A stretch of 64,000 bases of DNA from an uncultured Actinomycetes bacterium (GCA_963825255.1 CAWGSF010000007.1:2888-66887); one strand, 5' to 3'; positions 6,141 to 53,857 are shown, counted from the stretch's first letter. Made by a program: numbers and translations. Notes: generated by a model from the letters alone, not told the origin.

Positions 6141-6806
6141 TCAGGCCCCGGGGCGTGCGCTCGCCTCGAAGAGGCCCGTCTGGTGGGCGAGCACGACCGC
6201 CTGGACGCGGTCGCGGAGGTGGAGCTTCTGGAGGATGTGGGTGACGTGCGTCTTGACCGTCGTCTCGCTGATGGTGAGCTCGTCCGCGATCTCCGCGTTG
6301 GAAAGGCCGCCGGCGACCAGGCGGAGGATCTCCCGCTCGCGCCCCGTGAGCTCGTCGAGCTCCTTCGGCGGCGTGAGCCGGGGAATGCGGGTGAACTGCT
6401 CGATCACGCGCTTCGTGATCGCCGGAGAGAGAAGCGCGTCTCCGGCTGCGACCGTGCGGATCGCGCGAGCAGCTGCTCCGGTGGGTCGTCCTTGAGGACG
6501 AAGCCGCTCGCGCCGGCCCTGAGCGCCTCGTAGACGTATTCGTCGAGGTCGAAGGTCGTGAGGATCAGGATCGCGCGCGTCGCGCTTCGCCGCGAGGATC
6601 CGCCGGGTCGCCTCGAGCCCGTCGAGGTCGGGCATGCGGATGTCCATCAGGACGACGGCCGGATCGAACCGGGCGGCCTTGTCCACGGCCTCGAGCCCGT
6701 TGCTCGCCTCGGCGACCACCTCGATGTCCTCCTCGTCGGCGAGGAGCATGCGAAAGCCGGCGCGGACCATCGACTGGTCGTCGACGACGAGGACCCGGAT
6801 CGTCAT
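6141..6806 (-). CDS. LuxR/NarL-family response regulator (central segment out of frame between two compensating indels)
   Basis: Receiver [18 protein letters not shown]...[16 protein letters not shown] and [39 protein letters not shown]. About 37 codons between ~6570 and ~6465 read as Arg/Pro-rich nonsense, while the alternative frame gives [28 protein letters not shown]. Confidence 0.85.
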
Positions 6807-30518: not shown

Positions 30519-31259
30519 GCGGCCACCTCGCGGACGAGCTCGACGACGAGGTCGACGAGCGTCTCGAACGTCCGCTCGCCCTCCTCGGCGGTCGCCTCGG
30601 CGGGGGCGCCGCAGTAGGCGCGATCCATTCCCATGGCAATGAAATCCGTCTGCCCGTCGGCGATGGCCGCGGGCATGTCGATCATCGTCGATTCCAGGGC
30701 CGCCATGCGCTCCCGCCGGACGAGCTCCGGCCGGTCGGCGAGAACGAGCGACGTCTCGTAGCGGCCGGCGTGGCACGAGCCCGAGCGGAACTCCTCGGTC
30801 AGCCGTTCCGCGTTGCGACGCCGGGTCAGGTCGAGGAGGCGGGCCGACGGCCCCAGCTCCGCGACCGCGTCCCGGAGCGTGCGCACCTGCTCGGGCTCGA
30901 AGTGGCTGTTCACGAGGACGATCCGCCCGAAGCCCTGCGCGGCGAGCGACCGGGCGACGTCGACGACGAGCGCGCGCAGGGTCTCCTCGCCGATCGAGAC
31001 GGCGCCGGGGAAGGCGGCGCCGTAGCGGGTGACGCCGTAGGGGAGGCGGCGGGAGGACGAGCGCGCGAACCTCGGGGTCGTCCGCGAGCCTCTCGGCGGC
31101 GCGCCTGCAGACGCCGAGCGAGATGAGGGTGTCCGTCTCGAGCGGCGCGTGCGGCCCGTGGGGCTCGACCGCGCCGAGCGGGAGGAGCAGGACCGTCGGC
31201 CTGGGATCCGCGAGCAGCTCCTCGAGGTCGGGGTACGCGAGCTCGGCGAATTCCGTCAC
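30512..31259 (-). CDS. Creatininase-family amidohydrolase (one frame change near 31055)
   Basis: Motifs: LLLPLGAVEPHGPHAPLETD, then NSHFEPEQ and CHAGRYETS (ORF 30512..30913). GTGCTGA overlap with the ligase start. Confidence 0.7.
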
Positions 31260-33347
31260 GACGCGACGGCGGCGCCCTCGGAGCGCTCGGGCGCCGGACG
31301 GAGCTCGCGCTCGAGGTCGGAGGGCGGGAGGTCGAGGATGCAGAGGTCGCCGCGGCCCGCGCCGACGATCGTGCTCGCGTCGTCGAGCGTCGTCAGGTGG
31401 CCGGCGACGAGCGTCGGCACGCCCGCCCCGGCCCTGACGCGGTCGCTGAGGCCGGTGAGGAAGCCCCGGCGGTACTCGGGCCGGTCGTGGGCGACGGTCT
31501 GCCCGGCGACCACGTGAATCAGGTCGCAGCCGTGCTCGACGAGCGCGCGGGCGGTCGCGACGCCCTCCTCCACGGACACGCCGCCGCGGGCCCAGTCGGT
31601 GACGGACAGGCGGACGGCGAGGACGCCGTCCCACGCCTCGCGCACCGCGTCGAGCACCTCGAGCGGGAAGCGGAGCCGGTCCTCGCCGTAGGCGTCGGCG
31701 CGGCGGTTCGTGAGCGGGGAGAGGAAGCTGGCGAGGAGGTACCCGTGCGCGTAGTCGAGCTCGAGGATGTCGACGCCGAGCTCGGCCGCGCGCCGCGCAC
31801 CTGCCACGAAGTCCGCGCGGACAGCCGCCATGCCGTCCTCGTCGAGCTCCCGTGGAACGGGGCTGAAGGGGCCGTAGGGGAGAGGGGACGCCGACACGAG
31901 CTCCCACCCCTCGCGCAGCGGGAGGTCGACGCCGAACGAGCGCGGGCGGCACGCTCCCCGTCTGCCCGCGTGCCCGAGCTGGAGCGCGACCGGGCGGAAC
32001 GTGGGCTCCCACTCGCGGATCGTCGGCGTCTCCGGCGTGATCCTGCCCTCCGGGGAAACCGCCACGAACCCGCTGAGGACGAGCCCCGCCCCGGCCGGCG
32101 AGGCATCGGGCCGCGCGACCACGCGGTTCTCGAGCGAGACAAGTAACAGACTGTTACTTGTTGTCGTCCGCCTCCCGAGCTCGAGGGGGGCGAACGCCGG
32201 CGGCGGGGCCACGGCCGTGTCGGCGCCCGTGAACCAGGCGTCGAGCACCCGCGTGAACGTCGGGTCGCGGACCGTGAGGCTCGCGTGGCTGATGCGGCCG
32301 CTGCGCGTCAGCAGGTTGAAGGCGAACTGGATCGGCTCGAGGTCGCGGTAGCCCGCGACGCGGGCGAAGTACGCGGCGCTCTCGCTTGCCGCCTGCTGCG
32401 TCCGCTCGACGACGGGCTGGCGCTCCATCTCGTAGTCGACGAGCGCCGCCTCGACGTTCCAGGCGCGGCGCTCGAGGGCGTCGCGGAGAGCGATCGCGTC
32501 CTCCATGGCGAGCTTCGTCCCCGAGCCGATCGAGAAGTGCGCCGTGTGGGCGGCGTCTCCCAGCACGACCGTGCGGCCGTGGTGCCAGACCCTGTTCACG
32601 ACCTTCGGGAAGTCGAGCCAGAGCGAGCGGTTCGAGAGGAGCTCGTGGCCCTCGAGGTCGCGCGCGAAGAGCCGCTCGCAGAAGGCGAGGCTCTCGTCCT
32701 CGGACAGCTCGTCGAGGCCCGGCGCGGCGCCACGTCGGCTCCGGGCACTCGACGATGAACGTGCTCGTGCGCTCGTCGAAGGGGTACGCGTGCACCTGGA
32801 AGAGCCCGTGCTCGGTGTCCTTGAAGATGAACGTGAAGGCGTCGAAGACGAGGTCGGTGCCGAACCAGACGTACTTGCAGCCCTCCGGCGCGACCGACGT
32901 GCCGAGCTCGCGCTCCAGCCCGCGCCGGACGACGCTGTTGACGCCGTCGGCGCCGACGACGAGGTCGGCGTCGTCCGGAGCGCCGTCGAGCTCGACGCCG
33001 AACGCCAGGTCGACGCCGAGGGAGAAGCAGCGGCGCTGGAGGATCTCCAGGAGCCGCTTGCGCGCGATGGCCGAGAAGGAATGGCCCTGCGACCGGAGGA
33101 CGCGCCCGCGGTAGCGGATGTCCACGCGGTCCCAGCGCGCGAACGTGTCGGTGATCGCCAGGTACGTCTCCTGGTCGGCGTCGCGGAGCGCGCCGAGGGT
33201 CTCCTCGCTGAAGACGACGCCCCAGCCGAAGGTCGCGTCGGGGGCGTTCCGCTCCGTCACCCGCACGTCGATGCCGGGGTCGACCTTCTTGAGCAGGATC
33301 GCCAGGTAGAGCCCGGCGGGGCCGGCGCCGACGATCGAGACCCTCAC
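31256..33347 (-). CDS. 2-aminobenzoyl-CoA monooxygenase/reductase-like bifunctional flavoprotein (one frame change near 32718; carries palindrome copy 1)
   Basis: N-terminal half: VSIVGAGPAGL, GADGVNSVV, LGDAAHTAHFSIGSGTKLAMEDA. C-terminal OYE-like half: LQLGHAGRRG, ELDYAHGYLLASFLSPLTNRR. Confidence 0.7.
32139..32161. repeat. Palindrome copy 1 (ACAAGTAACAGACTGTTACTTGT), inside a CDS
   Basis: Perfect dyad read directly. The stop of spurious ORF 32154..33347 (TAA at 32154..32156) anchors the coordinates. Confidence 0.95.
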
Positions 33348-38577: not shown

Positions 38578-39375
38578 GCGCCCGGTCCCCCGTGAGCAGC
38601 CCGCTCCTCCTGCAGGTCGGGTACCTGGCGCAGGCGCTCGGTCCTGCGGACGCTGCGCCAGCCGGTGAACGTCGTCCCCTCCTTCGTCTTCCCGCTCATC
38701 CTGCTCGCGGTGAACACCGGCGGGCTCAGGGCGGCCGCTCGGATCCCGGGCTTTCCCGACCGACTCGTATCTCGACTTCGCGCTCGCCTTCACCTTCCTG
38801 CAGGGCGCGCTCTTCGCGACGACGAACGCCGGGACCGACCTCGCGCGCGACATCCAGACCGGCTTCCTGAACAGGCTCGCGCTGACCCCGATCCGGAGCT
38901 CGGCGCTCCTCGCCGGCCAGCTCGCGGGCGTCGTCGTGCTCGCACTCCTGCAGACGTCGCTCTACCTCACCGTCGGCCTCATCGCGGGCGTCACGATCGA
39001 GAGCGGCGTCCTCGGCGTGATCGTCCTCGTCTTCCTGGGCGTGCTCATCGCCCTCGGGTTCGGGGCGATCGGCGCGTTCCTCGGGCTGCGGACGGGCTCG
39101 GGCGAGGCCGTTCAGGCCTTCTTCCCGCTCCTCTTCGTCCTCTTCTTCATGTCGTCCATGAACCTGCCGCGGAACCTGATCGAGATCGGGTGGTTCCGCA
39201 CGGTGGCGACGATCAACCCGGTCTCCTACCTGATCGAGGCACTCCGGAGCCTGATCATCACGGGCTGGGACGCCGAGGCGCTGGCGCTCGGGCTTCGGGG
39301 TCGCCATCGGGATCGGCGGCGATCGCGCTCGCCGCGGCGAGCGTCTCGCTCCGGGGAAGGCTGGCGCGCGCATGA
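38574..39375 (+). CDS. ABC-2 type permease (about 3 frame changes: ~38640, ~38765, ~39295)
   Basis: ATGA overlap with the ATPase. TM-rich pieces lie in ORFs 38574.., 38665..39375 and 38936.. (NVVPSFVFPLILLAVNTGG, LLQTSLYLTVGLIAGV..., VATINPVSYLIEALR). Confidence 0.7.
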
Positions 39376-40141
39376 AGAGCTTCGTCTCGGTCGCCCTGGC
39401 GGTCGCGTGGCGCGGCGTCCGCAACGCGTTCACGACCCCGGCGATCCTCCTGCCCAGCCTGCTCTTCCCGCTCTTCTTCTTCACGGCGTTCGCCGGCGGG
39501 CTGTCGCGCGTCGCCGACGTGCCCGGCTTCGACTACCCCGCCGGCTACACGGCCTTCCAGTTCGTGTTCGTGTTCCTCCAGTCCGCGGCCTTCGGCGGCG
39601 TCTTCACCGGGTTCTCGATCGCGCGCGACTTCGAGAGCGGTTTCGCCCGCCGGCTCCTCCTCGCGGCGCCCCGGCGGACGGGGATCATCGCCGGCTACGC
39701 GATCGTGGCGCTCGTGCGCTGGGCGGCGACCGCGTCGGTCGTGACCCTCGTCGCTCTGATCTCGGGTATGACCATCCTCGGCGACGGAATCGACCTCTTC
39801 GGGCTCGTGCTTCTCGGAATCCTCGTCAACGTCGCGGCCGTCCTCTGGGCGAGCGGCGTGGCCATGCGCTTCCGCACGCTGCAGGCGGGGCCGTTGATGC
39901 AGATCCCGATCTTCCTCACGCTCTTCCTCGCGCCCGTGTACGTCCCGCTCGCCTGCTGAAGGGCTGGATCCACGCGGTCGCACAGGTGAACCCGGCGACG
40001 TTTCTGCTCGAGGCGGGACGCGGCTTCGTGGCGGGCGAGCCGGTGGAGGTGGCCACGGCGTTCGCCCTCGCGCTCGCCGCGGTCGCGGTCTTCTCCCTCT
40101 GGGCGCTCCGGGGCCTGCGAAGCGCCGAGTCCGCCGGCTAG
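39372..40141 (+). CDS. ABC-2 type permease (frame change near 39955)
   Basis: ORF 39372..39959, then the C-terminus LKGWIHAVAQVNPATFLLEAGRG in the ORF 38936..40141 frame. Confidence 0.7.
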
Positions 40142-41265: not shown

Positions 41266-41288
41266 GCAAGTAACAGTCTGTTACTTGC
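41266..41288. repeat. Palindrome copy 2 (GCAAGTAACAGTCTGTTACTTGC)
   Basis: Perfect dyad 12 nt upstream of the VOC start (41253) and about 120 nt upstream of the MauE-like start (41410). Confidence 0.95.
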
Positions 41289-41409
41289 TCGCTCGGCTAG
41301 CGTTGGGAGGGACGCGGTCACCGCACGAGAAACCCTAGACGCTGACTGTTTTTGAGGATTTGATGAAAACTCTCTCGCCGCATCCCGCGGGGGCCGATTA
41401 GCTCCTACA

Positions 41410-42288
41410 GTGGTCCCGTTGTCGACGGTCGCCCGGATCCTCGTCGGACTGCTCCTGCTCTGGGCCGCAGCGGCCAAGCTGCGCCGGCGCGAGGACCTTC
41501 CCGACTGGCTTGCCGCCTACGGCCTCCCGGGTCGCTACGCCCGCCCGGCCGCCTGGGCGGTCATGGCGGCCGAGGCGGTCGTCGGCGTCCTGCTGCTCTT
41601 CGGGCTGGCGCTGCCCGCGAGCGCGTACGCGGCGGTCCTCCTCGGCGTCGGCTTCGTCGCGGCGCTCGCCCAGGCGCGCCTCCGGGGCGTCGAGCGGCTC
41701 CGGTGCGGGTGCTTCGGCGCCTCCGAGGGCCGGACGACGCACCTCCTCCTCCGCGCCGTCGGCTTCACCGCCCTCGCCGCCCTGGCCGCCTTCGGCGGCG
41801 GGATCGACGTCTCGGCCTCCTCCGACACGCTGGTCGCCGTCGCCCTCGTCGTCCTCACGGCCGCGGTCGTCATCCTCTCGCTGCTCGTCCTCGCGCTCTA
41901 CCGCCAGGTCGGCGTCCTCACGCTCCGCCTCGGCCCGCGCGTCCCCCTCGAGCTCGCCGAGGAAGGCCCCGAGGTGGGCTCGTCCGCGCCGCCGCTCGAC
42001 GGTCTTCGCGGCCGGGGCGCCGAGGTCGTCTTCTTCTTCTCGGCGACCTGCCGGCTCTGCCGCCAGCTCGCGCCCGGCGTCGCCGCGCTCGCACGGCAAG
42101 GGCTCAGGGTGCGTGTCGTCGAGGAGGAGCAGGAGGGCGACGTCTTCGAGGACTGGAACGTGCCGGGGACGCCCTTCGTCGTCCACGCGATCGACGGCGT
42201 GGTCGCCGCGAAGGGAACGGTCAACACGCTGGAGGAGCTCGAGACGCTCCTCGACGCGGGGCGGGCGAGGGTCAATGCCGCCGCGTGA
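41410..42288 (+). CDS. MauE/DoxX-like 4-TM membrane domain fused to a thioredoxin-fold (MauD/TlpA-like) domain
   Basis: N-terminal TMs (ARILVGLLLLWAAAAKL...). A Cys pair RCGCFG lies in the membrane part. The C-terminal domain has a CxxC motif (FFFSATCRLCRQL). Confidence 0.6.
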   Translation: MVPLSTVARILVGLLLLWAAAAKLRRREDLPDWLAAYGLPGRYARPAAWAVMAAEAVVGVLLLFGLALPASAYAAVLLGVGFVAALAQARLRGVERLRCGCFGASEGRTTHLLLRAVGFTALAALAAFGGGIDVSASSDTLVAVALVVLTAAVVILSLLVLALYRQVGVLTLRLGPRVPLELAEEGPEVGSSAPPLDGLRGRGAEVVFFFSATCRLCRQLAPGVAALARQGLRVRVVEEEQEGDVFEDWNVPGTPFVVHAIDGVVAAKGTVNTLEELETLLDAGRARVNAAA

Positions 42289-42877
42289 CGCGCTCGACCG
42301 CTCGGCCGAGCGCCTCTCGGCGAAGCTCGCAGAGTCGACGACGCGCCGCTCTTTCCTGGGGAGGCTGGGCGCCGCCGCGCTCGCGGTCGCGGGCGGCTCG
42401 GCGGTCGCCGCGGCGGTCAAGCCGGACGAGGCGGACGCGTTTCACTTCTGCGGTCACATCTGGACGACCGGGTCCTGCCCGAGCCCCTATCCGCCCCTCT
42501 CGCGCATCGACCGCAAGGGCTTTCCGCTCCACCCGCAGAACGGGAAGCCGATCGACAACCTCGGTCGGTTCGTCGACGCCGCCGGCGACCCGGTCGACGG
42601 AAACGGCGATCGTCTGGTCGGCCCCGACGGCGAGCCGTTGCCCGCGGCGCCCAGGACCCGCATCTGCGAGGACTGGACGCGCGAGCGACACGGGCTCAAG
42701 GACGTCCGCATGCAGGGGTCGTGGTTCCGCTGCTGCGGCGGCCAGATCCGCAAGCTCGTCGACTGCTGCTCCCACAGCCGGCGCCGCATCAACGGCGATG
42801 CGTCGCTCGTCGGCTACTGCTGGGGCGGCCGCAGGGTCTACTGCGTCATGTACTACGACACGAAGCTCCCGTGCTGA
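42275..42877 (+). CDS. Tat-secreted Cys-rich protein resembling the methylamine dehydrogenase light chain (MauA-like)
   Basis: Twin-arginine signal TRRSFLGRLGAAALAVAGG. Has 10 Cys. Motifs GSWFRCCGG..DCC and GYCWGG..VYC are reminiscent of the TTQ-bearing light chain. 14-nt overlap with the upstream gene. Confidence 0.5.
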   Translation: MPPRDALDRSAERLSAKLAESTTRRSFLGRLGAAALAVAGGSAVAAAVKPDEADAFHFCGHIWTTGSCPSPYPPLSRIDRKGFPLHPQNGKPIDNLGRFVDAAGDPVDGNGDRLVGPDGEPLPAAPRTRICEDWTRERHGLKDVRMQGSWFRCCGGQIRKLVDCCSHSRRRINGDASLVGYCWGGRRVYCVMYYDTKLPC

Positions 42878-44255
42878 TCGAGGTCGGCGTCGCGCTCGCC
42901 GCGCTCATGGCCGGGGTCTCCGGCGCCTGGTCGCCCTGAGGGCTGTCCATGCTGGAGACCTTCACTCCCGCCGTGTGCGGGAGCCGCAAGCGCCAGATCG
43001 TCGCCCAGGCCCTCTTCGCCGCGACCGCGATCGCGACGTCGGCGGCCCTCGGGCTCGCCCTCGGGGCGGTCGGCAGCGCGCTCGGCGCGCGGCAGGCGGT
43101 GCTGGCCGCGGCCGCGCTCGCATTGGTCGCCGCGGCGCGGGAGGCCGGCATCGTCCGCTTTCCGCTGCCGCAGGCGCGTCGCCAGGTGCCCGAGCGGTGG
43201 CGCTTCCAGCTGCCTCTTCCCGTGTGGGCGACCGGCTACGGCGCCGGGCTCGGCGCCGGCTTCTTCACCTACCAGCCGGTCTCGACGTTCTGGGTTGCCT
43301 GCGCGGCCGCCCTCGCGCTGGGCCGGCCGCTGCCCGCGGCGCTCTGCCTCTCGCTCTACGGGGTCGGACGGGCGGCCATGGTCGTCTGGCCGCGCCGGCG
43401 CGGGGACGACCCGACCGCGGCCGTCGAGCGGCTCGCGGGCCGACGCGGCGCGCTCCTGAGGGCGAACGCCGCGGCGCTCGTCGCCTGCGGCGTCCTGCTC
43501 GCCCTCGCACCCGCGGCGGGGGGAGCGGTCATGGTGCAGACCGGCGCCCTCGACCCGTCGGTCGACGGCGCCAACATCGCGTTCGCGTCCCAGGTGGACG
43601 GCGAACGTGCACATCCGGCCCGTGGGAGGCGGCGCGGACCTCGCCGTGATCGACGACGCGCGCGAGCCCTCGCTCTCCGGGAACCACGTCGCGGTCGTCG
43701 ACGGCGGCGGCGTCACGGTCTGGGACTGGCAGGCCGATACGCCGGTCGACAGCATCACGGGCGTCTCCCACCCGGCGCTCGCCTGGCCGCTCCTCGCGTA
43801 CGTCAGGGTCGACTCCGGCTCGCGCGTGATCGTCGTCCGCAATCTCGAGAACGCCGAGACCGAGCAGGTGCGCGCCCGCGTCAAGCGGTCGGTCGACCTC
43901 GGGCGCCCGTCGCTCCGCGGCGGCCGTCTCGCCTGGCACACGGCCTCGCGGCGCTCGTCGAGCATCGTCGTGAAGACGCTCTCCAGCAACTCGCCGGCGC
44001 GTCGTCGCCCGCAGCCGGATCTCGCTGCTCGCCAACCCGTCGCTCAGCGGGTCGCGCATCGTCTGGGTCGAGCAGCGCTCCGGCAGCTCGTACCTCAGGC
44101 TCGGCTCGGTCCGGAACAGGGCGGTTCGGACGCTCGAGCGGCTCCCCGGCCGTGGGCGTACCTACTGGACGACCACCATGGGCGCCGACTGGGTCTACGC
44201 GACGCGCTGGCGGCTGAAGACCGGCGGCGCGAGCGTCCTGCGAACCCGCTACTAG
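42871..44255 (+). CDS. DsbD/CcdA-like polytopic membrane domain fused to a repeat (beta-propeller-like) domain
   Basis: An in-frame TGA lies at 42937..42939, with frame changes near 43600 and 43985. GTG 42871 overlaps the upstream stop (GTGCTGA). The N-terminal segment reads LIEVGVALAALMAGVSGAWSP-TGA-GLSMLE, and the listed ORF starts at ATG 42949. The C-terminal half has 5-6 repeats of about 45 aa: DPSVDGANIAF, EPSLSGNHVAVV, HPALAWPLLAYV, RPSLRGGRLAW, NPSLSGSRIVWV. Confidence 0.5.
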
Positions 44256-44375: not shown

Positions 44376-45841
44376 ATGCGGCCTTTCTCGTCCATGCGGC
44401 TTTGCGTGCTGGCGCTCGCGGCTGCGGCTGCGCTCGCGCTCGCGGGCCCGGCGGCGGCCGAGCGCTACGTCGTCCTGTACAAGGAGCGCGGCTGGTCGGT
44501 CTGGGGTGCGAAGACCGACGTGCAGCGCGCCGGGGGCTCGCTCGTCGCCTCCTACCCGGAGATCGACGTCGTCGTGGCCGAGTCGTCCGACCCCGGGTTC
44601 CCGGGGAAGATGGACCGGGTCCGGGGCGTTGAGGGCGTCGCCGCGTCCGGGAGCGCGGTCGCGTCGGCCGCCGGTCACTGGTGGGACGGAGACGGGGCGG
44701 GTCCGGACAACCCGTCTCCGACGACGACACGTTCTCGCCGCTCCAGTGGTGGTCGCAGCGGATCCAGGCGCCCGACGCGCACGCGATCACCGGCGGGAGC
44801 CGGAAGGTCGTCGTCGGCGTCATCGACACGGGAGTCGACGCGACCCATCCCGACCTCGACGACAACATCGACTGGTCGAGGAGCGCCTCGTGCGTGAGCG
44901 GGGCCGCGGTCCGCGACCCGGCCGCCTGGAACGACGATTCCGGCCACGGCACGAACGTCGCCGGCGTGATCGCGGCCGAGGCCAACGGCATCGGGATCGT
45001 CGGCATCGCGCCGAACGTGAGGCTGGCGGTCATCAAGGCGAGCGTCCACTCGGGCGACAGCGACTTCTTCCTGCCCGACGCGGTCATCTGCTCGCTCATG
45101 TGGGCCGCCGACCACGACGTCGACGTCGCGAACAACAGCTACTCGACGGACAGCGCCGTCTCGGGCGGGACGACCGCGTTCTGCAGGGACGACGAGGAGC
45201 AGCGCGTGATCATCAGGGCGGTCGGGCGCGCGGTCGAGTTCGCGCAGCGGCGCGGCGTCTCGGTCGTCGCGTCGGCGGGGAACGACGGGCTCGACGTCAA
45301 CGATCCGGCGAACGCGGGCTGCAAGAGGCTGCCGAGCCAGCTGCCCGGCGTGATCACGGTCTCCTCCATCGGCCTCGACGATCGCCTCGCCGTAGGACCG
45401 CCCTCGAACTTCGGGCTCGGGTACGTGGACGTGACCGCGCCGGGCGGGGACTTCCTCCAGGGCGTCCCGCCCTCGGGGCTCGTTCTCGGGCCGTGGCCGG
45501 CGGCCTTCCAGGTGCCGCGCCTTCTCTGCGATCCGTGCACGGGGCCGAATCCGGGCTACTACCGGTACTTCGCCGGCACCTCGCAGGCGGCGGCGCAGGT
45601 GAGCGGCGTGGCGGCCCTCGTCGTCGGCGAGCTCACCGATGACCGCAGGCACAAGGGCTGGTGGAGCTGGGGGAGGAAGGTCGACCCCGACCGGGTCGCG
45701 AGCATCGTCCGGCGAACCGCCGAGCCGTTCGCGTGCCCGGAGGGCGATGCCCGCTGCGTCACCGTCGGGAAGTCGACGAGCTTCTACGGGCGGGGCCTTG
45801 TCGACGCTCTCGCCGCCGTCGAGGCCGCGGACCGCGACTAG
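44376..45841 (+). CDS. S8 family (subtilisin-like) serine peptidase (frame change around 44650-44710)
   Basis: Signal peptide and I9-like propeptide in ORF 44376... Catalytic triad motifs VGVIDTGVD, HGTNVAGVIAA and GTSQAAAQVSGVAAL in ORF 44681..45841. Confidence 0.85.
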
Positions 45842-53834: not shown

Positions 53835-53857
53835 GCAAGTAACAGACTGTTACTTGC
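53835..53857. repeat. Palindrome copy 3 (GCAAGTAACAGACTGTTACTTGC; dyad extends to 53834..53858)
   Basis: Lies in the 35-nt gap between convergent stops 53831 and 53867. Coordinates are anchored by the spurious ORF stop TAA at 53850..53852. Confidence 0.95.

Follow-up and report, generated by a model that had tools for sequence, protein, structure and literature searches.

What is a set of Mau-type maturation genes for when it stands apart from the other genes of methylamine dehydrogenase (MADH)? This question is raised by three plus-strand genes at positions 41,266–44,255 of a 64,000-nucleotide (nt) stretch of DNA from an uncultured Actinomycetes bacterium (GCA_963825255.1 CAWGSF010000007.1:2888-66887). 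We refer to the whole of this stretch as the window and count positions from its first letter; its G+C content is 72%, and its proteins have their closest relatives in metagenome-assembled genomes of Gaiellaceae. An earlier note on the window had described a fusion of MauE with a MauD-like thioredoxin domain, a Cys-rich protein exported by twin-arginine translocation (Tat) and a propeller-bearing partner as a stand-alone Mau-type cassette, and the gist of that description holds. The region is probably a self-contained Mau-type maturation cassette with a selenocysteine (Sec)-type MauF, and it is quite probable that the cassette is dedicated to maturation. The features on which the argument depends are the following.

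41410–42288, plus strand: gene 1, 292 amino acids (aa), GTG start; MauE membrane domain followed by a MauD-type thioredoxin-fold domain.
42275–42877, plus strand: gene 2, 200 aa, sharing 14 nt with gene 1; product exported by Tat, with 10 conserved Cys.
42871–44255, plus strand: gene 3; MauF-homologous membrane domain and six-bladed beta-propeller, read through the TGA at 42937; broken by two frameshifts in the window.
42880–43389, plus strand: MauF-homologous region of gene 3; transmembrane (TM) helices; WSP[U/C]G, PQxRRQVPExWR, YGxxLGxGFxT and GxGRA.
42937–42939, plus strand: in-frame TGA, proposed Sec codon; codon and residue 23, in AWSP-U-GLSM.
42965–42983, plus strand: hairpin resembling a Sec insertion sequence (SECIS), CUCCCGC-CGUGU-GCGGGAG; 7-bp stem, starting 26 nt after the UGA.
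43528–44252, plus strand: extracytoplasmic six-bladed beta-propeller; repeats with PSL.G..hAW.

We compared the window with 84 related loci; labels such as L001 denote fetched loci around a gene 2 match. The cassette of genes 1–3 occurs across hundreds of soil Thermoleophilia genomes, relatives being encoded in at least 581 stretches of a one-genome-per-species collection. The genes are adjacent and in the order 1-2-3 in 83 of the 84 loci, and the three-gene neighbourhood that the earlier note had expected to be conserved is thus real. Identity across the loci drops to about 30–35% for genes 1 and 3 and stays at or above 55% for gene 2. We surveyed the neighbours of the cassette within 6 kb on either side of the gene 2 match in the 84 loci. 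MauG, MauB and amicyanin were all missing from these flanks, and an open reading frame (ORF) with two CxxCH motifs, as expected of a di-haem protein, was found neither there nor in the window, in agreement with the absence of these partners noted before. The CxxCH strings near gene 2 belonged to the CDPCH of MOSC-domain proteins, to one CSGCH ORF in a single locus and to a thioredoxin CxxC followed by H. A conserved flavoprotein hydroxylase, radical S-adenosylmethionine (SAM) enzyme, cytochrome, metal chaperone or P-type ATPase was likewise not encoded nearby across the surveyed loci, nor was any other conserved partner gene.

Both halves of gene 1 proved to be as the earlier note had proposed, namely a MauE/thioredoxin fusion with a CRLC motif that resembles MauE joined to MauD. 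Residues 3–128 matched Pfam MauE (PF07291) with 86.3 bits (cut-off, 27; E = 2.7e-24), and the CGCF(G/R) motif is kept (RLRCGCFG in gene 1; IDCGCFR or IDCGCFG in the MauE of Paracoccus and Novosphingobium). Residues 142–290 aligned with MauD in BLASTP (Novosphingobium, E = 1.3e-15; P. denitrificans, E = 1.2e-12); ATCRLC of gene 1 falls on APSCPVC of MauD, and the CxxC is retained in homologues. The arrangement characteristic of MauD, a thioredoxin fold with CxxC that follows an N-terminal membrane anchor, is present in gene 1. Since the match to TIGR02661, the MauD equivalog, scored 34.7 bits, below its cut-off of 188.6, we describe this half as a MauD homologue, not as an equivalog.

Gene 3 begins at a GTG at 42871 inside GTGCTGA and ends with a TAG stop at 44253–44255. 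These ends had been placed correctly before; treatment of the gene as a single ORF had missed the in-frame TGA at 42937–42939 and two +1 frameshifts. The label 'DsbD-like' for its membrane domain also turned out to be wrong in detail, as the domain is a homologue of MauF. When we aligned it in hhalign with P. denitrificans MauF, taken from the canonical mauFBEDACJG cluster on a plasmid record, the probability was 99.0% (E = 3.3e-18, 170 columns), and BLASTP matched gene 3 to the MauF of Indioceanicola (E = 4.6e-11) and Methylobacterium (E = 4e-9). The correspondence extends over the length of the domain: LSTWSPCGYSS of MauF pairs with AWSP[U/C]GLSM of gene 3, PYPQRRAQVPHDAR with LPQARRQVPERWR, LYGLSLGLDYLTYV with GYGAGLGAGFFTYQ, and FNLGRFLP with YGVGRA. 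MauF has no Pfam model, and our literature search found no demonstrated function or mechanism for it. The gene 3 window protein matched nothing in Pfam or NCBIfam, the DsbD/CcdA models (PF02683 and PF13386) and DsbB included. Across the family, matches to DsbD_2 or DsbD_TM were faint (E = 0.009–0.17; in 4 of 18 members, E = 0.009–0.05) and far below the Pfam thresholds, and a PDB profile search with the membrane domain returned no CcdA or DsbD. Moreover, DsbD and CcdA carry a Cys pair, one in TM1 and one in TM4, whereas gene 3 has a conserved Cys-type position in TM1 only, its TM4-equivalent segment YGxxLGxGFxT being without Cys. We therefore rejected a DsbD/CcdA identity, no match to which rose above noise, in favour of homology to MauF.

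The repeats in the second part of gene 3 had been suggested to form a beta-propeller, and structure prediction agrees. The AlphaFold2 (AF2) model of a gene 3 homologue, P0122, had a mean predicted local distance difference test (pLDDT) value of 85.4, with 10-residue block means of 85–98 over the propeller. Foldseek placed the propeller closest to TolB (root-mean-square deviation, 3.3–3.8 Å over about 226 columns; E about 1e-8; 18–20% identity), YncE and BamB, and MADH was not among the top 50 matches. Taken together, gene 3 is almost certainly a MauF homologue fused to a propeller. We also considered whether the propeller is like MauB. It showed no sequence relation to MauB in hhalign (1.1% and 0.2%), and its fold is six-bladed and TolB-like, in contrast to the seven-bladed heavy subunit of MADH; a MauB-like propeller is thus ruled out. 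The idea that the propeller stands in for the heavy subunit retains the fact that it always adjoins gene 2, and has lost the resemblance to MauB in both sequence and fold.

We then considered how the in-frame TGA of gene 3 is decoded. The codon at this place in the motif WSP-x-G-[FL]-S-M-[ILV]-E-T could be scored in 82 loci, the other 3 having no membrane domain, and it was TGA in 65 and TGC or TGT in 17 (a stricter motif search counted 64 and 16; the relaxed motif gave the final count). The TGA forms are mostly labelled Gaiellaceae, and most of the Cys forms Solirubrobacterales, with a few labelled Gaiellaceae or less specifically. At the position of the UGA, three MauFs have Cys, as do the 17 sister loci. 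Short-read assemblies contain the TGA as well. Sequence on both sides of it behaves as coding sequence: in the 20 codons 5′ of the TGA, non-majority bases numbered 353 at position 3, 180 at position 1 and 143 at position 2, and several of these upstream residues are invariant despite synonymous change, including a switch between TCN and AGY serine codons; the three codons from the TGA to the next ATG have invariant second and variable third positions and encode G-[LFV]-[SA], like the Cys forms. Stop codons in the TGA-type loci are mixed, with TGA 55 and TAG 10 for gene 2, TAG 29, TGA 23 and TAA 6 for gene 3, and TAG 29, TGA 5 and TAA 4 for a downstream S8 protease gene. In the window operon, genes 1 and 2 end at TGA; TGA thus serves them as an ordinary stop, and a genome-wide reassignment is therefore excluded. 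A search for gene 3 homologues found 549, and all 120 of the matches listed covered 79–94% of the query and lacked the N-terminal 26 residues; the gene calls in these matches therefore begin after the TGA. Judged from these patterns, the UGA of gene 3 is very likely to be decoded as Sec.

The hairpin downstream of the UGA is specific to the TGA form. Over 61 distinct TGA-type sequences, its positions were paired in 96.3% of cells, compensatory double changes were seen in three of the seven pairs, some of them requiring a non-synonymous change or a switch of serine codon family on one side, and the covariation score of the whole structure was reached by none of 500 shuffles. In the Cys-type genes, pairing at the same positions was only 33–52%, and alifold found the hairpin in the TGA set only. 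The distance from the UGA to the loop is 32 nt. By the bacterial SECIS rules of Zhang and Gladyshev (2005), this distance reportedly ranges from 16 to 37 nt and the loop contains a G; the hairpin fits these rules. Another hairpin, which starts at the UGA itself, was weak (83.6% of cells paired, many unpaired), and we make no claim for it. In Rfam scans, the window and the TGA region yielded only tRNAs and noise, and neither a tRNA-Sec nor another gene with an in-frame TGA was found in the window and fetched loci.

One further residue accompanies the TGA form. Cys36 of gene 3 (42976–42978, in PAVCGS), 13 residues past the Sec position, occurs in 60 of the 61 distinct TGA-type sequences and in TGA-type genes only, and its codon sits where the loop of the SECIS-like hairpin meets the 3′ stem. 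This Cys may act as a resolving residue, or it may simply reflect the constraint that the RNA structure imposes.

Related genes from Thermomicrobia link the cassette to recognized MADH light chains. The megaplasmid of Thermomicrobium roseum DSM 5159 (L091, NC_011961.1) encodes Pfam-positive MADH light chains (E = 9e-9 and 9e-11), and the cluster also includes several propeller-like proteins, a propeller::MauE fusion (596 aa), a thioredoxin-like protein and the following gene.

L091 9684–10349: T. roseum MauF-like gene; its annotated start is the Met after an in-frame TGA (ALWSP*GYSMVDVLGPT).

The product of this gene, the 197-aa 'hypothetical protein' WP_012643071.1, matched our profile of the gene 3 membrane domain from position 27 onwards (94.7%, E = 6.4e-8). 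The sequence upstream of the annotated start reads MTLWLVPLALASGCSALWSP-TGA-GYSMVDVLGPT, and an ATG there overlaps the stop of the preceding gene. The TGA, together with a GGUCGA-CGUGC-UCGGCC hairpin 17 nt downstream, recurs in three more Thermomicrobia loci (L096, L097 and L098), so that four loci in all combine an in-frame TGA and a CGUGC-loop hairpin beside Pfam-recognized MADH light chains. A CGUG(Y) pentaloop is common to the Thermomicrobia and Gaiellaceae hairpins. Given this TGA in the Thermomicrobia genes, a Sec-type MauF exists in two phyla, to the extent that the UGA is read as Sec. An additional light-chain-like ORF, at about L091:6850–7320, lacks annotation.

The MauF domain would be new among selenoproteins. 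An inventory from 2026, which covers 119 families of prokaryotic selenoproteins, includes no MauF or WSPUG family, its nearest entries being the rhodanese/DsbD-fusion TsoB and the SO_0444 Cu/Zn efflux transporter (PMC13188914). None of the NCBIfam selenoprotein models matches gene 3, and a literature search turned up nothing relevant on selenoproteins in Gaiellales or Thermoleophilia.

The product on which these membrane proteins might act is that of gene 2. The earlier account of this gene (its coordinates, the 14-nt overlap, the twin-arginine motif TRRSFLG, the 10 Cys, GSWFRCCGG and GYCWGG) was accurate. None of its 1442 homologues has a Pfam domain or an informative name. Invariant in the family are the ten Cys, the C-terminal one included, H61, W150, RINGD and G180-Y181-C182. 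The likeness to MauA, the MADH light chain, that had been proposed for gene 2 stands for the leader, which matched the twin-arginine leader model TIGR01409 (E = 2.2e-4) and aligned with the leader of the MauA precursor over 35 columns (hhalign, 84.9%, E = 6.4e-6). TIGR02659 was matched by 32 of 66 gene 2 members, the match of the window protein being confined to the leader (positions 6–39). For the mature domain, membership of MauA was rejected after Pfam, a PDB profile search, hhalign against 2bbk_L, and AF2 modelling followed by Foldseek had all been negative, and what stands of the likeness there is marginal. Family-versus-family hhalign of the mature domain with proteobacterial light chains and the two T. 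roseum chains gave a colinear alignment at a marginal P of 0.016; P was 0.003 when further Thermomicrobium-type homologues were added and 0.0012 against Thermomicrobium-type light chains alone. These alignments pair W150 with Trp57 of the tryptophan tryptophylquinone (TTQ) cofactor, LVDCC with YRDCC, Y181-C182 with Trp108-Cys, and the last Cys-containing strands with each other. The TTQ pair is not complete, W150 falling on Trp57 and the invariant Tyr181 taking the place of Trp108. The Trp of GYCWGG, a motif singled out in the earlier note, is W183; it is replaced by Y, F, Q or H in relatives. On the strength of the alignments, the mature domain is rather more probably than otherwise a remote homologue of amine-dehydrogenase light chains; that it carries a Trp-derived cofactor is doubtful.

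In the mechanism that we propose, the gene 2 protein, once exported by Tat, would dock on the propeller, which is tethered to the membrane. Two membrane redox modules, the CxxC domain of MauE–MauD and the Sec/Cys of the MauF domain, would then form or rearrange the five Cys pairs of the gene 2 protein and possibly a Trp150-centred cross-link. The Gaiellaceae UGA at the invariant Cys of WSPCG would most likely be read as Sec by way of the hairpin 26 nt downstream, with the nearby Cys36 likely to act as the resolving residue of the Sec forms.

Before other readings are weighed, the two frameshifts of gene 3 need to be described.

43601–43606, plus strand: first window-specific frameshift, net +1 nt (alignment with L005, L004, L013, L018 and L086).
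43993–43996, plus strand: second window-specific frameshift, one extra G (alignment with relatives).

Both are private to the window. The gene 2 protein of L005, a short-read assembly, is 95% identical to that of the window, and its gene 3 has an intact frame of 461 codons with the TGA kept. L086, a Logan assembly whose gene 2 protein is identical to the window's, has an intact gene 3 frame, again with the TGA, up to the end of its contig, which lies inside gene 3 past both frameshift sites. L001 and L002 are sister long-read assemblies (the gene 2 proteins of L001–L003 are 97% identical to the window's), and each has private single-base indels of its own. Other genes of the window are also split, namely two ABC-2 permeases (38665–40141), the S8 protease (44376–45841) and a fusion of a flavin adenine dinucleotide (FAD) monooxygenase with an old yellow enzyme (OYE; 31256–33347), and these are intact in relatives, the permeases and the protease in L004.

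Two alternatives take the gene 3 sequence of the window at face value. The TGA might be a true stop, in which case gene 3 of Gaiellaceae would consist of two cistrons, one for a 22-aa peptide that ends in WSP and comprises the first half of TM1, the other for a protein of 434 aa that starts anew at the ATG, the lost Cys being functionally replaced by that of PAVCGS. All gene callers do start at this ATG, a GAGG follows the TGA at Shine–Dalgarno-like spacing from it, the PAVCGS Cys strictly accompanies the TGA form, and neither the window nor the fetched loci revealed any sel gene. A stop codon, however, would not be expected to stay TGA in 65 of 65 loci while the real stops switch among TGA, TAG and TAA, nor would the 9-nt stretch from the TGA to the ATG be expected to keep codon periodicity and to encode G-[LFV]-[SA] like the Cys forms. 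The same TGA stands at the same Cys in a second phylum, and a stable, conserved, TGA-specific hairpin 16 nt past the restart ATG would hamper initiation. We consider a true stop quite improbable, and decoding as Sec remains our preferred reading of the codon. It might also be argued that gene 3 of the window is a decaying pseudogene, its frameshifts real and the cassette inactive in this organism, as the two frameshifts are absent from every relative. Genes 1 and 2, however, are intact in the window, and the private single-base indels of the long-read assemblies L001 and L002 point to assembly error. Because the frameshifts are private to the window, and because unrelated genes of the window are split and yet intact in relatives, they are probably assembly errors, the window likely coming from an error-prone long-read assembly; decay of the gene is improbable.

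The other two alternatives concern what the cassette matures. Gene 2 might encode a highly diverged amine-dehydrogenase light chain in which a Trp150 quinone is linked to Tyr181 or a Cys, with the propeller as heavy subunit, the whole being a membrane-tethered quinoprotein. The homologues of MauD, MauE and MauF and the MauA-like leader are what such an enzyme would call for; the colinear hhalign pairing (W150 with Trp57, DCC with RDCC, Y181-C182 with Trp108-Cys; P = 0.0012–0.016) points the same way, as do the Thermomicrobia intermediates with their Pfam-positive light chains, propeller::MauE fusion and MauF-like gene, and the position of gene 2 beside the propeller, which is constant also in loci without the MauF domain. 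Yet the mature domain finds no support in Pfam, the PDB or Foldseek and lacks the second TTQ Trp; the neighbourhood of the cassette has no conserved gene for MauG, a flavoprotein hydroxylase, a radical-SAM enzyme, amicyanin or a cytochrome; and the propeller is six-bladed and TolB-like, not MauB-like. We regard such a quinoprotein as a tentative possibility. Alternatively, the MauF-like domain could be a channel or chaperone for a metal, such as copper, with the Cys/Sec, Met and Glu of C/U-G-x-S-M-x-E as ligands, and could load a metal site in the gene 2 protein, which contains Cys and His, instead of performing thiol-disulfide chemistry. The Met and Glu do lie beside the Cys/Sec in the motif, the Cys forms add a His (GPTGHTGG), and Tat export is typical of cofactor-carrying proteins; the superfamily to which the faint Pfam DsbD_2 and DsbD_TM matches point holds metal transporters, one of them a known selenoprotein, the SO_0444 family (PMC13188914). 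Those matches, however, are far below the Pfam thresholds, the MauE and MauD partners are thiol-redox proteins, the ten invariant Cys of gene 2 suit disulfides, and the neighbourhood has no conserved gene for a metal chaperone or P-type ATPase. A role in metal handling is thus very improbable, and we retain thiol-redox maturation of the gene 2 protein as the probable function of the cassette.

Several observations count against our own interpretation. A search of the window and of about 1 Mb of fetched loci, which are partial genomes only, revealed no selA, selB, selC or selD. The hairpin lies in the conserved coding sequence TPAVCGS, its folding energy is unremarkable for this GC content, and two loci have an uncompensated mismatch in it. 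Translation could also restart after the TGA, which is directly followed by a GAGG that might act as a Shine–Dalgarno sequence and, 9 nt downstream, by an ATG. For gene 2, PF02975 matched none of 14 diverse members at E values up to 10, a PDB profile search with the mature domain gave no match, and the AF2 model, of moderate confidence (pLDDT 63), matched nothing in the PDB at E < 0.5 in Foldseek. The contact of gene 2 protein with the propeller is a predicted one. In L059, L067 and L077 (Miltoncostaeaceae and others), the gene that follows gene 2, at about 6550–6800, encodes a signal peptide and a propeller with no MauF domain; the two modules of gene 3 are therefore separable, and it is the propeller that is the constant neighbour of gene 2.

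On the other side stand the homologies to MauE, MauD and MauF, the conservation of the cassette, the pairing of Sec and Cys forms, the TGA-specific hairpin and the propeller fold. We conclude that the cassette is a real, previously undescribed form of Mau system, and that its MauF part is a probable new selenoprotein family.

What would this mean for Mau systems in general? The MauD/E/F module is not confined to MADH and also serves a widespread small Cys-rich Tat protein, which would be either a new class of quinoprotein or a new client of the redox pathway. Exchanges between Sec and Cys usually mark catalytic redox cysteines. The exchange seen here therefore leads to a testable hypothesis, that the Cys of WSPCG is the active site of MauF. 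It is conceivable that an unrecognized class of MADH-like enzyme exists in Thermoleophilia and, in related form, in Thermomicrobia; in it, a new small subunit with a cross-linked cofactor centred on Trp150 would sit on a membrane-tethered propeller and would be matured by MauE–MauD and a Sec-dependent MauF with no MauG nearby. If so, the natural Sec/Cys swap would mark the WSPCG Cys as the catalytic redox residue of MauF, a protein for which we found no defined role in the biogenesis of TTQ enzymes. The codon also has a bearing on annotation, as the gene is truncated at the Met after the UGA in every homologue listed and every call inspected. T. roseum DSM 5159 is a cultured organism with the same TGA beside its light chains, and the prediction is thus directly testable there.

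The surroundings of the cassette contain three further features.

44376–45841, plus strand: gene of a secreted, subtilisin-like S8 protease; frameshifted in the window, undivided (490 aa) in L004.
41350–41409, plus strand: conserved upstream region TTTTGAGGATTTGATGAAAAC ... CCGATTAGCTCCTACA; noncoding, running up to the GTG start of gene 1.
41266–41288, no strand assigned: perfect AT-rich palindrome GCAAGTAACAGTCTGTTACTTGC, between a divergent glyoxalase gene and gene 1.

The secreted S8 protease that had been reported downstream is there, albeit frameshift-split in the window. It follows the cassette in 37 of the 84 loci, all in a Gaiellaceae subset and not in Solirubrobacterales, with MOSC-domain genes coming after it, and it may have a part in processing the gene 2 protein. 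A glyoxalase gene precedes the cassette in 28 loci and is divergent from gene 1 in the window. The motifs TTTTGAGGATTTGATGAAAAC ... CCGATTAGCTCCTACA also occur 5′ of gene 1 in L004, L010, L013 and L018, and several Gaiellaceae loci share the stretch. A scan of this region for the sigma-70 consensus found nothing; it is probably a promoter (perhaps of a leaderless or short-leader mRNA) or a 5′ leader, and may otherwise be a regulatory site.

The palindrome that the earlier note had placed before the cassette is real and has three copies in the window (32141–32159, 41268–41286 and 53837–53855; expected by chance, 0), each 19–23 bp long and perfect, of the form (GC)AAGTAACAG[T/A]CTGTTACTT(GC). 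The flanks of the three copies are unrelated. One lies upstream of the glyoxalase gene, another between two convergent genes, and the third apparently interrupts a salicylyl-CoA-hydroxylase-like ORF, into which it inserts about 11 codons. Among the relatives it occurs only in L001–L003, and it is therefore not part of the conserved cassette; with this distribution and three copies in unrelated contexts, a role as operator of the cassette is ruled out. It may be a site for a regulator or a tiny mobile palindrome.

Finally, we compared the cassette with known systems. In the Dsb field, the closest architecture is that of DsbI of Helicobacter and Campylobacter, which PMC4597128 describes as a DsbB-like membrane domain followed by a periplasmic beta-propeller, with a thioredoxin-fold partner. 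DsbI and gene 3 thus share the succession of a polytopic membrane thiol-redox domain and an extracytoplasmic propeller. The membrane domain of gene 3 is MauF-like, however, and has no Pfam DsbB match, whereas that of DsbI is DsbB-like, and the likeness is therefore one of architecture and function, not of family membership. Although TolB is the best structural match of the propeller, gene 3 has no TolB N-terminal domain, is membrane-tethered and stands in another genomic context. Among selenoproteins, TsoB and SO_0444 are like gene 3 in having Sec in a membrane-embedded motif of a polytopic protein and in the existence of Cys homologues (PMC13188914); the motif of gene 3 is WSPUG, as opposed to the UxxxxU or UxC of the TsoB/SO_0444 class, and the families differ.

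The light chains of MADH and aromatic amine dehydrogenases (MauA/AauA, PF02975), the atypical Thermomicrobium chains included, have a long Tat leader with a similar n-region, as gene 2 does. Both are small Cys-rich subunits with a colinear series of SW..CC, DCC, aromatic-Cys and C-terminal Cys elements and an adjoining propeller gene. Gene 2 differs in that it has 10 Cys instead of 12, is longer by about 60 residues, carries Tyr at the position of the second TTQ Trp and has no MauG nearby. The gene order E-D-small subunit is common to mauEDA, to the aau clusters and to the cassette; compared with the MauE and MauD accessory proteins of MADH and aromatic amine dehydrogenases, those of the cassette are fused in one polypeptide, and the MauD part is far below the TIGR02661 cut-off. 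The nearest counterpart of gene 3 is MauF of the mauFBEDACJG clusters of Paracoccus, Methylobacterium and Indioceanicola, whose operon partners MauB, MauA, MauG and amicyanin are all missing from the surveyed flanks of gene 2. About 170 residues are homologous, WSPCG, PQRRxQVP, YGLSLGLxxLTY and GRxLP are common to both, and each protein is encoded with MauE, MauD and a small Tat subunit. Gene 3 differs from MauF in that it lacks some 70 additional N-terminal residues of the latter, has a propeller fused at its C-terminus and, in Gaiellaceae, carries a UGA in place of the invariant Cys.

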